Source of the DNA: Candidatus Acidiferrales bacterium
Lineage (GTDB): Bacteria; Acidobacteriota; Terriglobia; Acidiferrales; UBA7541
DNA: 64,000 nucleotides
Reading direction: 5' to 3'
Assembly: GCA_963779395.1 (NCBI GenBank)
Contig: CAVZYC010000002.1
Coordinates: 331,651-395,650 of the forward strand
Shown here: positions 52,378-61,460 of the stretch, one piece after another
How positions within the stretch are numbered: position 1 is the stretch's first letter
Layout: every line of letters begins with the position of its first letter
Position numbers and translations under genes: made by a program
The notes under the pieces: generated by a model
Seen by the model: the letters and a program-made list of their open reading frames with translations, nothing else
The model's database searches: none
Told to the model about the DNA's origin: nothing

Positions 52378-53078
52378 GGCGGGGAGCCTGTAAGCCGGAT
52401 TCTGTCCGCCGCCTGCCTTGCAGCAGTGCGCCGCGACGATCATTCCTCTAGCCCCGGCCTCGCGACCGGGATCCAGCGACCTACCCGAGGGTTCATCATT
52501 CCCATCAGCTTGCGCCTCTGGTAAAGGAGCCGCTGCGCTTGCGCACAGTGCTCAGCGAGCCGGGCCAGCTCTGCCCTCCTATTTGGTCTTGCACCTCGCG
52601 GGGTTTGCCGTGCCCCCGATGTTGCCACCGGGGCGGTGGGCTCTTACCCCACCTTTTCACCCTTACCCGCGTAGCCAACCGTGAAGACGTCCCGAAGGTT
52701 TTCCTTCGAGCTATCACCGGGCTGCTCCGCTGGCGGTATATTCTCTGTGGCACTTTCCGTGACGCCTGTAGCCACCGGCTTTTAACCCGGCACGCAACAA
52801 ACGTCCCCTGGCGTTACCAGGCGCGATGCCCATTCCCTGCTCCTGTAAATGCCGAGCATTACAGGCTGCGGAAAAAATCCTTTCTTTAGGAGGCCGGGGC
52901 TTCAGCCCCGGCGTAAAGCCATTAAAACCACTGGGCTTTAGCCCCTGAAGAAAGTCTTTCTTGCATTTTTCTGCAGCCTCTGTAGCCCGGCATCCGCATT
53001 CGCAAAGTGGTGTCCGGACTTTCCTCCCGCCCAAGCCGCTTGCGCAACTCGGACCAGCGATCGTCCAGCTCACCCGCC
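52378..53078 (-). ncRNA. rnpB: RNase P RNA (bacterial type A), enlarged to about 700 nt
   Basis: Minus strand shows GAGGAAAGTCCGG, CCTGGTAACGCCAGG, GGAAAGTGCCACAGA, GGGTAAGGGTGAAA.GGTGGGGTAAGAGCCCACC, GGCAAACCCC, AGAATCCGGCTTAC, and P1 pairing GGCGGG/CCCGCC. Confidence 0.95.
52863..52979. mobile_element. REP/MITE-like nested hairpin inside rnpB
   Basis: Terminal inverted repeats AGGCTGCGGAAAAA / TTTTTCTGCAGCCT (13/14 match); inner palindromes CCGGGGCTTCAGCCCCGG and GGGCTTTAGCCC. Confidence 0.8.
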
Positions 53079-53084
53079 AATGCC

Positions 53085-53090
53085 ATTATA
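53085..53090 (-). promoter_or_regulatory. rnpB -10 box
   Basis: Perfect TATAAT on the minus strand, 6 nt upstream of the P1 5' strand. Confidence 0.75.
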
Positions 53091-53119
53091 CCGCGTCGCG
53101 CATCATCTCAGAGACGGAT

Positions 53120-57640: not shown

Positions 57641-57869
57641 GCGAAGACTGGCGCCTCAAGTTGAGAAGAGGGGGCTCACGGGCAGTGTAGTCAAACCTTG
57701 CCGCCCAGCCTCCAATGGAAAATGGCGCAACCCTGCCCCAGTAACCCATTAATCCAAAATGAGTTACCAGGGCCCGGGATCCATTGACGCGATTTAGGAA
57801 GGATGTTACTCTGGTCTCGGTGAATGCTATGAAAGCAACGCCGGTTACACTCGAAGAATAGCTCCTCCC

Positions 57870-59342
57870 CTACGAGCTCCTGCCTAGATACGCCTCTACG
57901 TCTGATTGCCAATTCTTGTTTTGGGCATTTCTTTTGGCGTCTCCAGCAAGCTTGCGCAGAATGTTGTCCACACTTCCTTGCGTGTTCAATTTGGGCTTCT
58001 GCTCCGGCGGATACCAATAAGCATAGGGCTTGTTCATCTCGAATTCGACAATCGCGGTGAACGATTCCAGATACTGCATGGCCTCCTCGCATTGCGGAAT
58101 CGTCAGCCAATCGCAAAAATGCTTGTGCACAAACTCATACACGCTTCCCGCCCCTGCCTTCCTGAATTTTTCCATGAAGGTAATCAATAAGTCGTCGGCT
58201 TCGACATATTGCAGCAGTTCGCTGAACTTTTCACGGATGGCGGGATCTCCGCGGATATAGAGCCGGTTGGTTTCAGACCAGCAAGCCGCCGCCAAGTCCT
58301 CTCCCACGCGGTCCTTGAAATAAAACCCGCCGCGGCGATCTGTGAAGCGCTTGTTTCGCTTGCGTAAAAGAACCAGATAGAAGAGCGCATGCTTGTATTT
58401 ATCTTCGGCCGGCACCACGCTCGGCGCCGGCCGCGCTTGCTGCAGACTGGCGCGGCACTCCGTTACGTGCGCCCGCACGGTCTTGGCGGCCGCAAGGATG
58501 GGCATGTAGTGTTTAGTGGCGTCCTCGTGGCTGACTCGAAGCATCTGGTTCCAGGTTTGGAAAAGCTGCTGGCGTTCCTGCTCGCTGCGATGACGGTCGG
58601 CTTCGAGCGCCTGCTCTGCCAGCCGTTGCGCCGTGTCCCTCGCCGTTTCGGCGGCTCGGCGCGCCACTTCGCGATTGTCTTCCCATTTCTTGAAGACGAA
58701 GGCCAACACGGCGAGCAAGATAGGCAGGGCCAGATCTTTCAACGTGGTTTGAATCCAGGCCCACACCTGTTCCAGGCTATCCACCCAATTTTCCGCCTCC
58801 AAATCTCCGAACACTGCCAAGAATTGGGAAGGGTGGCCATCCGCGCCGGTCCACCGTATCGTGGCGTAAATGGCGCGTTTCTCCTGGCGTCTATCGGCGC
58901 GAAGCTGGCCCCAGATCGCGAGAGTTTGCCCTGGTTTTAATTCAGAGGTGATCGTCTCCTCGTTCGCCAGTGGATTCGGCCGCGCCGGTAGTGCATTGGC
59001 TGTGGTTGGATCCGTGGGAACGCACGAAGATGCGCCAGGCGCGGGGCGCCAACAAGGGTTGACGATCGTAAAACCTTCCAGTCCCGTTGGCGCAATCGTC
59101 ACGGCAAACATGCTTTGCGAGCCGCGGTTGCGAATAGTCAGCCAGAACGCGACGTTTTCATCTACATACACGCTGGGTCGCGCCAGCGATGCCGTAATGT
59201 CTGTCTCGTTGCCAGCCGCAGCCGGTGCCTGCTGCGCCGCAATTTGCGCGGCAACCGGCAGCACCTTATTCGGTGACTCTCCCACTGTCCCGGCCAATGC
59301 GGGTACCAGCAACACCCCGAGCAAAATTGCGAGCGGCTTCAT
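57870..59342 (-). CDS. Hypothetical single-pass membrane protein
   Basis: Signal peptide (MKPLAILL), beta-rich Ig-like segment, TM LALPILLAVLAFVF, coiled coil, helical C-terminal domain. Confidence 0.75.
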   Translation of the reverse strand: MKPLAILLGVLLVPALAGTVGESPNKVLPVAAQIAAQQAPAAAGNETDITASLARPSVYVDENVAFWLTIRNRGSQSMFAVTIAPTGLEGFTIVNPCWRPAPGASSCVPTDPTTANALPARPNPLANEETITSELKPGQTLAIWGQLRADRRQEKRAIYATIRWTGADGHPSQFLAVFGDLEAENWVDSLEQVWAWIQTTLKDLALPILLAVLAFVFKKWEDNREVARRAAETARDTAQRLAEQALEADRHRSEQERQQLFQTWNQMLRVSHEDATKHYMPILAAAKTVRAHVTECRASLQQARPAPSVVPAEDKYKHALFYLVLLRKRNKRFTDRRGGFYFKDRVGEDLAAACWSETNRLYIRGDPAIREKFSELLQYVEADDLLITFMEKFRKAGAGSVYEFVHKHFCDWLTIPQCEEAMQYLESFTAIVEFEMNKPYAYWYPPEQKPKLNTQGSVDNILRKLAGDAKRNAQNKNWQSDVEAYLGRSS

Positions 59343-59429
59343 AGGCCTCTCCCAGCCGTCGGCAAGCGAGACCATTCTTCGCAAGTCAGTATATATCGTA
59401 TTTAGATTGATAAGTCCAACGTGAATATA

Positions 59430-61460
59430 CTACTTCGGAGAAAGGAGCTTCTCAAATTCAGATTCTGTGAGTATGGCCACGCCCAATTCCTTCGCTTTGT
59501 CGTACTTCGATCCCGGGTCCGTCCCCACCACAACATAGTCGGTCTTCTTGCTAACCGACCCGGAAACCTTCCCGCCATTCTGCAGCACCAATTCCCCAGC
59601 CTCTTCCCGGCTGCGATTCGCCAATCCTCCAGTAAACACAAACGACTTCCCCGCAAACTTCTGGCTTTTCACTTCGCGCTTTTCCGCAGCGGGACGGACG
59701 CCAGCTTTGTTGAGCTTCTTAATCAGGTTGCGATTCGCGGCTTCCGAGAAAAACTCCACAATACTTTCAGCCACCTTGGGTCCAACTTCGTTCACATTTT
59801 CCAGCTCTTCGGTCTTGGCCGCCGCAAACTCCTCCAGCGAAGAAAAATGTTCCGCCAGCAACTGCCCCGTGCGCTCCCCCACAAACTGAATTCCCAGCGC
59901 AAAAATCAGCCGCGAAAGCGCATTCTTCTTGCTGGCCGCAATTTCCTCCAATAAATTCTGCGCGGATTTTTCCGCCATACGCTCCAAATTGGCCACTTCG
60001 TCCTGTTTCAGCGCGTAGAGGTCCGCCACATCCTTGACCATTTTCTTTTCCACAAGCTGGTCCACGATCTTTTCGCCCAGCCCATCGATATTCATCGCGT
60101 GGCGCCCAGCAAAATGCACCAGCGATTCCTTCAGCTTCGCGGGACACGCGGCATTCACACAGCGATAAGCCACTTCCCCTTCCACCTTATGAATGGCGCT
60201 GCCGCAAACGGGGCACTCCTTCGGCATGCGAAACGGCTTCCGCTTCTTCCCTTCCTTCACCACTTTCAATACATGCGGAATCACTTCTCCCGCGCGCTCG
60301 ATCAGCACGGTATCCCCAATCTGCAATCCCAGCCGGTCAATCTCATCCATATTGTGCAAGGTGGACCGGCTGACAGTGACGCCTCCCACCTGCACCGGCT
60401 CCAGCACCGCCACCGGCGTCAGCGTTCCCGTCCGCCCCACCTGCACGATGATGTCGTTCACCACGGTAGTTTCCTGCCGCGCCGGATATTTGTAAGCAAT
60501 CGCCCACCGTGGAGCCTTCGCCGTGAATCCCAGCTCATTCTGCAGCGAAGTCGAGTTCACCTTGATCACCACGCCATCAATGTCATACGCCAGCTTCTCG
60601 CGCTTCGAGTCCCAGGCAACGATGTAGTCCACAACCTTGTCGATCCCATTGCAAAGCTTCCAATCATCAGAAGCGCGGAACCGCAATTGCCTCAGTGCCA
60701 GCAGCGACTCCGAGTGCTTCGCGAATGGCACCTTTCCATCCACGAAAAGGTAATACGCAAAAAAGTCCAGCCGTCGCTGCGCCGTAATCGTAGGATCCAA
60801 AACGCGAATCGCCCCCGCCGCCGCATTCCGCGGATTAACAAAAATCTTCCCGCCGCTCTGCTCCTGCTGCCGGTTCAACGCGTCAAACGATTCGCGCGTC
60901 ATCATGATTTCCCCGCGCACCTCAAAATCCACGGGCAAACCAGCCTTTTTCAGCGCAGCCGCCTCCACGCGCAGAGGCACGCTTCGCACCGTCTTCACAT
61001 TAGGCGTAACGTCCTCCCCAGTACTTCCATCGCCCCGCGTAACCCCGCGCACCAACACGCCTTTTTCGTATTGCAAAGAAATGCTCAAACCATCGAATTT
61101 GTGTTCAGCAATGTATTCGATGTCCTCGCGCCCGCTGGTTTCGCGCACGCGCCGGTCCCAATCGCGCAGCGCGTCGTGCGAAAACGCATTGTCCAAGCTA
61201 AGCATCGCCCGCGCATGCCGCACCGTCTGAAATCCTTCGCGGGGAGCTCCGCCAACGCGCAAGGTAGGCGAATCCGGCGTAACCAGTTCCGGGTAGGCTG
61301 CCTCAATCTCTTTCAACCGGTTCATCAACCGGTCGTAGGCGGCATCCGAAATCTCCGGGTCGTCCTCAATGTAGTAGAGGTATTCGTGCCGCCGTATCTC
61401 GTCGCGCAGTTTTTCCGCTTCCTTCTTTACCGCCCCGCTCGCTTTCGTCGCCTTCGCCAT
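59430..61460 (-). CDS. ligA: NAD-dependent DNA ligase
   Basis: EHKFDG adenylation motif, TRGDG, CPVC Zn finger, HhH repeats, C-terminal BRCT. Start taken at MAKATK. Confidence 0.98.

Follow-up and report, generated by a model that had tools for sequence, protein, structure and literature searches.

The ligA–rnpB interval described here raises the question of how three sets of cargo genes can come to stand in a row between two conserved genes, each set followed by a copy of the start of the second gene. The interval lies in a 64,000-nt stretch of DNA from Candidatus Acidiferrales bacterium (contig CAVZYC010000002.1 of assembly GCA_963779395.1, positions 331,651–395,650), hereafter called the window, to which all positions refer. 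On the minus strand, the order of genes is ligA for the NAD-dependent DNA ligase, a gene for a 504-aa protein, an orphan piece of rnpB (copy C) fused to an orphan piece of ligA (copy D), orf193 on the plus strand, the CPBP477 gene, a second orphan rnpB piece (copy G), a CPBP-like gene, and the working RNase P RNA gene rnpB (Table 1). Our comparison with related genomes indicated that this array holds three alternative alleles of one recombination hotspot in tandem, which were probably stacked by one-sided homologous recombination combined with illegitimate recombination.

The array and its three units

A preliminary description of this DNA had reported three minus-strand copies of a −10 box with the 5′ end of rnpB, each behind a different gene. 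A search with the pattern TATART-N5-8-GGCGGGTGAGCTG returned these three copies, at 53066–53090 (one nucleotide short of the start of 53065 given originally), 55235–55259 and 57615–57640, and no match in 100 dinucleotide-preserving shuffles of the window. The copies follow the genes for the CPBP-like 495/510-aa protein, for CPBP477 and for the 504-aa protein, respectively, as had been described. The reported duplication of the ligA 3′ end was also present, as a 194-nt segment with 87% identity between copy D and the resident gene. The stretches bounded by these repeats are referred to as units 1, 2 and 3, counted from ligA.

For comparison, a ligA search with one genome per species provided 80 loci, often on long contigs and with few exceptions under the labels Acidoferrales, Acidiferrum or Acidoferrum; a second scan of metagenome contigs added 80 further loci and homologues of the cargo proteins 12 more. 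The comparison covered ~165 related Acidoferrales loci. The window's own copies in other assemblies (e.g. L093–L096 and L001) were kept separate and not counted as relatives. The LigA proteins of 80 Acidoferrales species were 79–92% identical, and ligA followed by rnpB in the strict pattern was found at 80 of 86 and 59 of 80 loci (139 altogether), the remainder being mostly truncated contigs or sequence variants. Each unit of the window occurred alone as the whole interval in other lineages, noncoding parts included: unit 1 in L090–L092, unit 2 in L005, and unit 3 in L084–L088. Because each unit alone fills the interval elsewhere, the window appears to contain three alternative alleles of a single hotspot placed one behind the other.

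The three-unit array is genuine and not a misassembly, because it was carried by at least four independent assemblies. Contig L093 from the European Nucleotide Archive (ENA), which originates from another sample, was collinear with positions 64000→53340 at 98.7% identity with indel-type errors; contig L001 spanned 57904→50696 at 99.9%, the NCBI contig L095 spanned 59472→56529, and L094 and L096 gave extra cover. The same unit order was present in contigs from ERZ25039473 (10.7 kb collinear, indel-type errors), ERZ25039529 and GCA_052915825.1, and Logan unitigs of two different studies spanned joint 1, the fusion of copies C and D, without mismatch, so the misassembly that the preliminary description had considered was not supported. 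The chance that assembly merged co-occurring strains of differing cargo, by way of the ligA and rnpB sequences common to them, is negligible, for although the sample is a soil metagenome with related strains and the repeats are of the type that confuses assemblers, the unit order was identical in these other samples and studies, and joint 1 is a unique fusion sequence that offers no repeat-mediated path. Two further joints were set aside. Unitig X4 (302 nt) joins 59494 to 57486, with ligA passing directly into the copy D tail as it would in a form that lacks unit 1; this unitig was not used, and with its coverage of ~3x and its joint inside a 47-nt shared stretch it may be a graph artefact. 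Joint X3 (52840→55148) was first taken for an ancestral strain, and its differences in the P3 helix match L007/L004-type genes, which identified it as the rnpB of a related species.

Unit 1 extends from ligA to nucleotide 13 of rnpB. Its 504-aa protein had no match in Pfam and PADLOC searches, and homologues with 65–69% identity were encoded by the sole gene between ligA and rnpB in L090, L091 and L092, where the 230-nt spacer behind the gene could also be aligned; L052 carried a homologue at 35%. At joint 1, GGCGGGTGAGCTG is directly followed by ACGAATCGCAGCC, which fuses rnpB nt 13 to ligA −194 (counted back from the ligA end). The parental sequences, GAGCTGGACGATCGC in rnpB and TTGGCGAATCGCAGCC in ligA, share an imperfect patch of 9–10 nt (CGA/TCGC), and the microhomology of ACGA-TCGC to GCGAATCGC covers 8 of 9 positions with one gap. 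Downstream of this joint, copy D matched the real ligA at 98% between −194 and −71, and identity fell to 67% over the last 70 nt. Its first 124 nt were at most 85% identical to anything but the resident ligA; its tail and the sequence after the stop resembled L008/L103, where orf193 directly follows ligA, and the tail of the real ligA resembled L004, L005, L006 and L086. Stand-alone BRCT frames were open in displaced ligA pieces of both the window (57423–57629, 68 codons) and L100 (2097–2318, 73 codons), and the last 23 codons of these two orphans differed by 15 nucleotides and only 2 amino acids, most changes being synonymous.

Unit 2 extends from ligA −194 to the P9 region of rnpB. The 193-aa protein encoded by orf193 represents the commonest cargo family of the ligA–rnpB interval (cluster 0, 21 members), and orthologues of CPBP477 were found directly upstream of rnpB in L005 (68%), L013, L021, L036, L057, L065, L124 and others; a CPBP477-type gene, the 193-aa gene or both were present in the interval of many other species. 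The L005 alignment continued unbroken from CPBP477 across the promoter and reached the 5′ rnpB portion of copy G, the P3 type of which is that of the closest relatives L097, L007 and L004. The preliminary description had taken each copy for a −10 box with the rnpB 5′ end, which holds for copy C, but copy G runs on through P1–P5 and, beyond an insert, a P7/P8 remnant. Neither copy C nor copy G had an RNase P match of its own in the Rfam search. The insert of copy G contained two 50-nt units (54974–55023 and 55076–55125) and had a 43-nt match at 32220–32262. Its word depth in soil metagenomes was 10–15x that of the neighbouring sequence, so the repeats belong to a high-copy family of these soils.

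Unit 3 reaches from just past a ligA stop into the working rnpB. At joint 2 (~54636–54640) the rnpB-like sequence ends with GTTCGTTGC, and homology to the spacer of L084 begins with GCCATTGCC, starting at 54635, ~30 nt past the ligA stop of L084; the microhomology of GTTTGTTGC to GGTTTGGCC at this joint was read with a parent represented only by a 76%-identical relative. Homologues of the CPBP-like protein (56–76%) were encoded between ligA and rnpB in L084–L089. The protein was 25% identical to CPBP477, yet orthologues of each elsewhere reached 68–76%, and the two genes are therefore not local duplicates. In its subfamily, a conserved SEWxWRG replaces EExxxR, and the catalytic histidine motifs were lacking in every member examined, so that these proteins are probably non-catalytic relatives of the CPBP proteases. 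The gene, previously described as a degenerate CPBP gene, is on these comparisons an intact, maintained paralogue and not a decayed local copy. CPBP/Abi-family proteins can serve as bacteriocin immunity proteins; no sign of such a role was seen in this cargo, in which the PADLOC search found no match and the domains included no toxin or immunity domain.

Table 1. Features of the ligA–rnpB array and its surroundings in the window, with orphan pieces at five related loci (breakpoints counted from the rnpB start or back from the ligA end)
Feature	Position	Strand	Remarks
ligA (NAD-dependent DNA ligase), upstream conserved flank	59430–61523	−	open reading frame (ORF); last 194 nt (59430–59623) are the segment copied downstream
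Unit 1 cargo, 504-aa (or 490-aa) membrane-anchored protein	57870–59384	−	ORF; no Pfam family
Conserved noncoding spacer after the unit 1 gene	57641–57869	−	alignable with relatives
Orphan copy C	57615–57640	−	−10 box TATAGT (57635–57640) and rnpB nt 1–13 (57615–57627); ends at joint 1
Orphan copy D, ligA 3′ end	57423–57616	−	BRCT domain, open 68-codon frame; repeat with the real ligA
Unit 2 cargo 1, orf193, 193-aa protein	56822–57403	+	ORF; no Pfam family
Unit 2 cargo 2, CPBP477, Rce1-like/CPBP membrane protease	55317–56750	−	EExxxR, FxxxH and HxxxN motifs intact
Orphan copy G	54640–55259	−	rnpB-like; nhmmer 7.9e-15; ends at joint 2 (~54636–54640)
Copy G, −10 box TATAGT	55254–55259	−	part of the repeat pattern
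Copy G, P1–P5 of rnpB with long P3	55247 to ~55095	−	alignment to rnpB
Copy G, insert of ~400 nt with dispersed repeats	~54690–55094	−	interrupts the rnpB-like sequence
Copy G, P7/P8 remnant	54640–54689	−	rnpB-like after the insert
Unit 3 cargo, CPBP-like 495-aa protein (495/510 aa)	53120–54607	−	ORF open to 54652; homologues in relatives
Functional rnpB, class A RNase P RNA	52375–53090	−	−10 box TATAAT 53085–53090; 5′ end 53078
Conserved noncoding element of ~120 nt, repeats AACTGTGNC	48781–48901	−	adjoins the orphan rnpB 3′ end
Orphan rnpB 3′ end	48745–48783	−	outside the array coordinates
L032, rnpB 5′ piece of ~130 nt	breakpoint ~+130		a cupin gene comes next, then the true rnpB, which has a different P3
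L042, degenerate −10 box and 11 nt of rnpB	breakpoint +11		
L143, rnpB 5′ piece cut just past P4	breakpoint ~+85		followed by a 315-aa gene
L100, ligA 3′ copy	breakpoint −208		followed by the 193-aa gene
L101, ligA 3′ copy	breakpoint −105		

Cargo turnover and the composition of rnpB

Among the relatives, rnpB came after ligA in the same orientation at almost every locus, with 20 to 4477 nt between the ligA stop and the start of rnpB, and the interval was empty in many species. Filled intervals contained one or two genes from at least 20 unrelated families, with 28 protein clusters in the first 86 loci and Pfam assignments that included CPBP, trypsin-like peptidase, DUF2971, cupin, GNAT, alpha/beta-hydrolase, SRPBCC and PaREP1, which bore out the earlier expectation that this interval accumulates variable cargo in related Acidobacteriota. 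The cargo differed in L004, L005, L006, L007, L008, L084, L086, L097 and L100 even though their LigA proteins were 90–93% identical to that of the window, indicating a turnover that is fast relative to the divergence of the flank. In ~97% of the relatives, one cargo allele was present with no leftover copy of a flank, so replacement is the rule and addition the exception. Intervals of the relatives thus matched the preliminary description in their variable cargo and, at five loci, in orphan pieces of the flanking genes, but the rarity of leftover copies together with the varying breakpoints described below speaks against the cassette-like system it had proposed.

The Pfam scan of the cargo found no integrase in any relative, and no integrase, recombinase or transposase was found in the 64-kb window, its larger ORFs being ordinary housekeeping genes. 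Transposases of insertion sequences (IS) were present in three loci only: L005 (13376–14794, DUF772/DDE), L026 (12867–14120, DDE_Tnp_1_4, IS1380-like) and L014 (12041–12745, DDE_3, IS630-like). Taken together, the ligA–rnpB interval of Acidoferrales appears to be a recombination hotspot that operates without a mobile element.

The exchange appears to reach into rnpB itself. Rfam (RF00010) gave one match in the window, at 52379–52869 (178.9 bits against a threshold of 100). Alignment to ~100 relatives placed the true P1–P4 at 53078–52995, beyond a 128-nt insert resembling repetitive extragenic palindromic (REP) sequences (52862–52989), which lies in the hairpin loop after P5 and splits the 5′ domain from the rest of the gene; because of this insert, Rfam misplaces the rnpB 5′ end. 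The insert consists of GGGCTNAAGCCC-type hairpins and is absent from L004, L005 and L097; its repeat family also occurs in the L100 interval and in L015. With the RNase P gene split by an insert and flanked by pseudo-copies, automatic annotation was misled. The −10 box assignment rests on conservation among relatives, as TATAAT was the sole conserved sequence upstream of rnpB in ~160 of them; similarity between the three copies does stop at this box, as the preliminary description had noted, but the box is for that reason no special boundary. The rnpB promoters have no consensus −35 element and were missed by a scan with a σ70 pattern. In metatranscriptome runs only the conserved rnpB core of other organisms was covered, and the insert and P3 of this strain were uncovered.

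From P4 onward, the working rnpB was 94–96% identical to L004, L005 and L097, and its P3 matched only L100 (20/20 nt). Orphan copy G has the long P3 type of those closest relatives. The working gene is a mosaic. Derivation of its 5′ part from a distant clade was considered and dropped, as the close relative L100 has the same P3. Among order-wide pairs of loci with rnpB bodies at least 90% identical, 57 of 202 had P3 helices that could not be aligned. Genomes with LigA at least 90% identical carried at least five P3 architectures, and the same architectures recurred in distant lineages (L004–L176). On this comparative evidence, exchange of the upstream cargo evidently takes the rnpB promoter and 5′ domain with it.

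The recombination pathway and its alternatives

Orphan pieces of the flanking genes at five other loci (Table 1) showed how variable the joints are. Including copies C, D and G of the window, the breakpoints fell at +11, +13, ~+85, ~+130 and ~+150 of rnpB and at −105, −194 and −208 of ligA, and no common sequence flanked the joints across the window and the five loci. A 10-mer GGCGGGCGAG in L126 was discarded as a chance match inside a PaREP1-like gene. The varied breakpoints argue against a site-specific enzyme and for one-sided homologous recombination combined with illegitimate recombination. The joints and the five loci also agree with the earlier proposal of an additive array in which the ligA end and the rnpB start acted as recombination handles.

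From the anatomy of the array, its joints, the identity and recurrence of the alleles and the chimeric rnpB, we infer the following pathway, entry of DNA and order of events. In the usual turnover, cargo would be swapped between lineages by homologous recombination in both conserved flanks, with the ligA-side crossover falling before the last ~70 nt and the rnpB-side crossover in the invariant P1/P2 or P4 stretches, so that the promoter and the P3 helix would travel with the cargo. The mosaic rnpB and the switch in the ligA tail at −70 observed in the flanks fit recombination at these places. In the array, two rarer events would have added cargo instead of replacing it, with donor DNA coming from a related strain. 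In each addition, one end would pair homologously and the other would be joined illegitimately at a microhomology inside the opposite flank gene, and the resident allele would be pushed aside with a truncated copy of a flank gene (ligA piece D, rnpB pieces C and G). Such events would leave one intact ligA and one intact chimeric rnpB, with three complete alleles in tandem. The ends of the inserts were consistent with this pathway: one side was the non-homologous joint 1 or 2, and the far side of the unit ran into intact ligA or rnpB. If the donor belonged to the same species or to a very close one, the 98% identity of the duplicated ligA segment would be accounted for. The joint at copy G is probably the older one, because its rnpB piece differs by 13–23% and took up a repeat-rich insert, and the joint of copies C and D is probably recent. 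We consider stacking by one-sided homologous and illegitimate recombination the simplest reading of the array and its probable origin.

Several points weigh against this account. The −10 box and the first 26 nt of copy G are unchanged and the rest differs by 13–23% from functional genes, a pattern that uniform neutral decay does not predict. Within the species, no haplotype of one or two units that could be a precursor was found. With a crossover at P4 and a joint at P9, a simple linear double exchange fails to give the P4–P9 duplication unless the donor had the species' own rnpB body. In addition, the account presupposes that this uncultured lineage takes up DNA, by natural competence or otherwise. 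Judged by sequence comparison, stacking by one-sided recombination may not be separable from two of its alternatives, crossover of a circularised fragment and local duplication with allele replacement.

The first of these, a rather unlikely Campbell-type integration along the lines of the first mechanism named in the preliminary description, would have a ligA–cargo–rnpB fragment of a relative circularise by an illegitimate joint of the rnpB 5′ part to the ligA 3′ part and enter by one crossover in ligA or rnpB. It would explain why flank segments are duplicated (ligA −194 to −71 at 98%, and rnpB P4–P9), and the sharp switches at ligA −70 and at rnpB P4 are those expected of a single crossover in a duplicated segment. 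However, it predicts reciprocal chimeras in which the first 124 nt of copy D are derived from the donor, yet these are 98% identical to the resident ligA, so that a near-identical conspecific donor would be needed. No circular junction or free form was seen, and a non-replicating circle is an extra assumption. Nor is a circle required, as a linear donor with homology at a single end accounts for the structure too.

Local tandem duplication of the whole interval, joining the rnpB 5′ part to the ligA 3′ part, with later replacement of the cargo by homologous recombination, seemed to us quite unlikely. It takes more events, and for unit 1 the rnpB-side crossover must fall within the 13–26 nt kept by copy C; moreover, between the three units the cargo is either unrelated or no more than 25% identical. 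Duplication within a genome would fit the close agreement of the ligA segments (98% in the window, 94% in L100), as well as the similarity (~96%) of the orphan and true rnpB 5′ parts in L143.

The side behind rnpB brings in another kind of repeat. A 3.6-kb insert (48784–52376) with a TetR gene and two SDR genes separates rnpB from an orphan copy of its 3′ end and a conserved noncoding element of ~120 nt, both located at the far end of the insert; L006 shows the unsplit state. The 3′ orphan and the element were present in at least 14 related loci, 0.7–7.4 kb behind rnpB. The left edge of the orphan was fixed in the 11 loci where it was well preserved, and a DUF5615 PIN-like gene was often near. 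No integrase was found near the rnpB 3′ orphans in the loci examined, and the element had no match in the Rfam search and a weak consensus fold. This pair may go back to a single old event, with later turnover within the insert, or it may be the trace left by a site-specific element. On a broader conjecture, which we regard as very unlikely, both ends of rnpB would be used by a dedicated, unrecognised insertion system, with the 5′ orphans, the fixed-edge 3′ orphans and the 120-nt element as its footprints and with retained promoter copies driving captured genes, for example from copy G into the CPBP-like gene. If so, rnpB would serve for attachment in the way that tRNA and tmRNA genes do; a literature search on rnpB as an attachment site returned nothing relevant.

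Highly improbable is the site-specific insertion offered by the preliminary description, in which an integrase or an integron-like or transposon-like enzyme encoded elsewhere would recognise the rnpB start or the ligA end. In its favour, events recur in these two genes, some breakpoints lie close together (rnpB +11 in L042 and +13 in the window; ligA −194 and −208), and the 3′ orphans share their fixed left edge in 11 loci. Nevertheless, the 5′ breakpoints range from +11 to ~+150 and those of ligA from −105 to −208 with no conserved sequence at the joints, neither the window nor any cargo yielded a recombinase, attC-like repeats were not seen, and ~97% of the loci have no leftover copy.

Comparison with known systems

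The process behind stacking by one-sided homologous and illegitimate recombination is a known one; what is unusual is that an essential ribozyme gene serves as its anchor, in an uncultured soil lineage. Evidence for gene addition at hotspots without mobile elements has been mostly statistical, and the joints preserved here allow the steps to be read: pieces of the essential ligase gene and of rnpB remain as scars of the joining, three alleles are stacked, and the ribozyme gene is itself recombinant. An essential noncoding RNA gene, with its promoter and 5′ domain, can therefore apparently anchor recombination and be reshaped by it. For population studies of how an abundant, uncultured soil lineage gains genes, the interval offers a concrete locus.

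Several known systems resemble the array in part. Like an integron, it is an ordered array of unrelated genes whose units end in a similar short sequence; unlike an integron, it has no IntI, attI, attC or common promoter logic, and its unit ends are fragments of neighbouring genes cut at variable points. The window contained no attC-like inverted repeats and no tyrosine recombinase. Integrase-mediated islands at tRNA and tmRNA genes likewise adjoin a gene for a small structured RNA, are bounded by a repeated piece of it and leave the gene intact, but here the 5′ end and promoter are repeated instead of the 3′ end, the breakpoints vary and an integrase is absent. The orphan of the rnpB 3′ end looks more like this class of islands, although it too comes without an integrase.

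The joints are closest to homology-facilitated illegitimate recombination (de Vries & Wackernagel 2002; Prudhomme et al. 2002; Meier & Wackernagel 2003; as cited in PMC5361080 and PMC3240628), in which, according to these citing accounts, a homologous anchor and a joint at a microhomology lead to a net gain of foreign DNA, as proposed here. The cases known from these accounts are experimental and come from transformable species, whereas ours is read from genome comparison and its donors would be close relatives with the same locus. Sequential displacement by this mechanism is the published model for orphan arrays at effector–immunity loci of type VI secretion systems (T6SS) and at Rhs loci (Kirchberger 2017, PMC5361080), and displacement arrays are also known from Rhs/CdiA-CT loci (Jackson 2009; Poole 2011, PMC3150448). 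As in these Rhs, contact-dependent inhibition (CDI) and T6SS arrays, new modules would arrive with a piece of a conserved gene, the displaced module would keep a fragment of it, and repetition would let the array grow. In contrast to those arrays, the anchors here are housekeeping sequences (the ligA 3′ end, and the rnpB 5′ end with its promoter) and not toxin genes, displacement would proceed from both sides, and the cargo does not consist of toxin–immunity pairs, with no evident selection to keep the old cargo.

Finally, recombination in the core genes on either side has been proposed to drive the turnover of hotspots without mobile elements (Oliveira et al. 2017, PMC5635113). The ligA–rnpB interval shares with them its shortness, its diverse genes between two conserved ones and the absence of an integrase or other mobile-element machinery, and the mosaic rnpB and switched ligA tail in its flanks would fit recombination there. 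It differs in that one flank is an essential noncoding RNA gene whose promoter and 5′ domain are apparently exchanged together with the cargo, and in that the alleles of the window are stacked and not exchanged, with leftover pieces of the flanking genes showing how.

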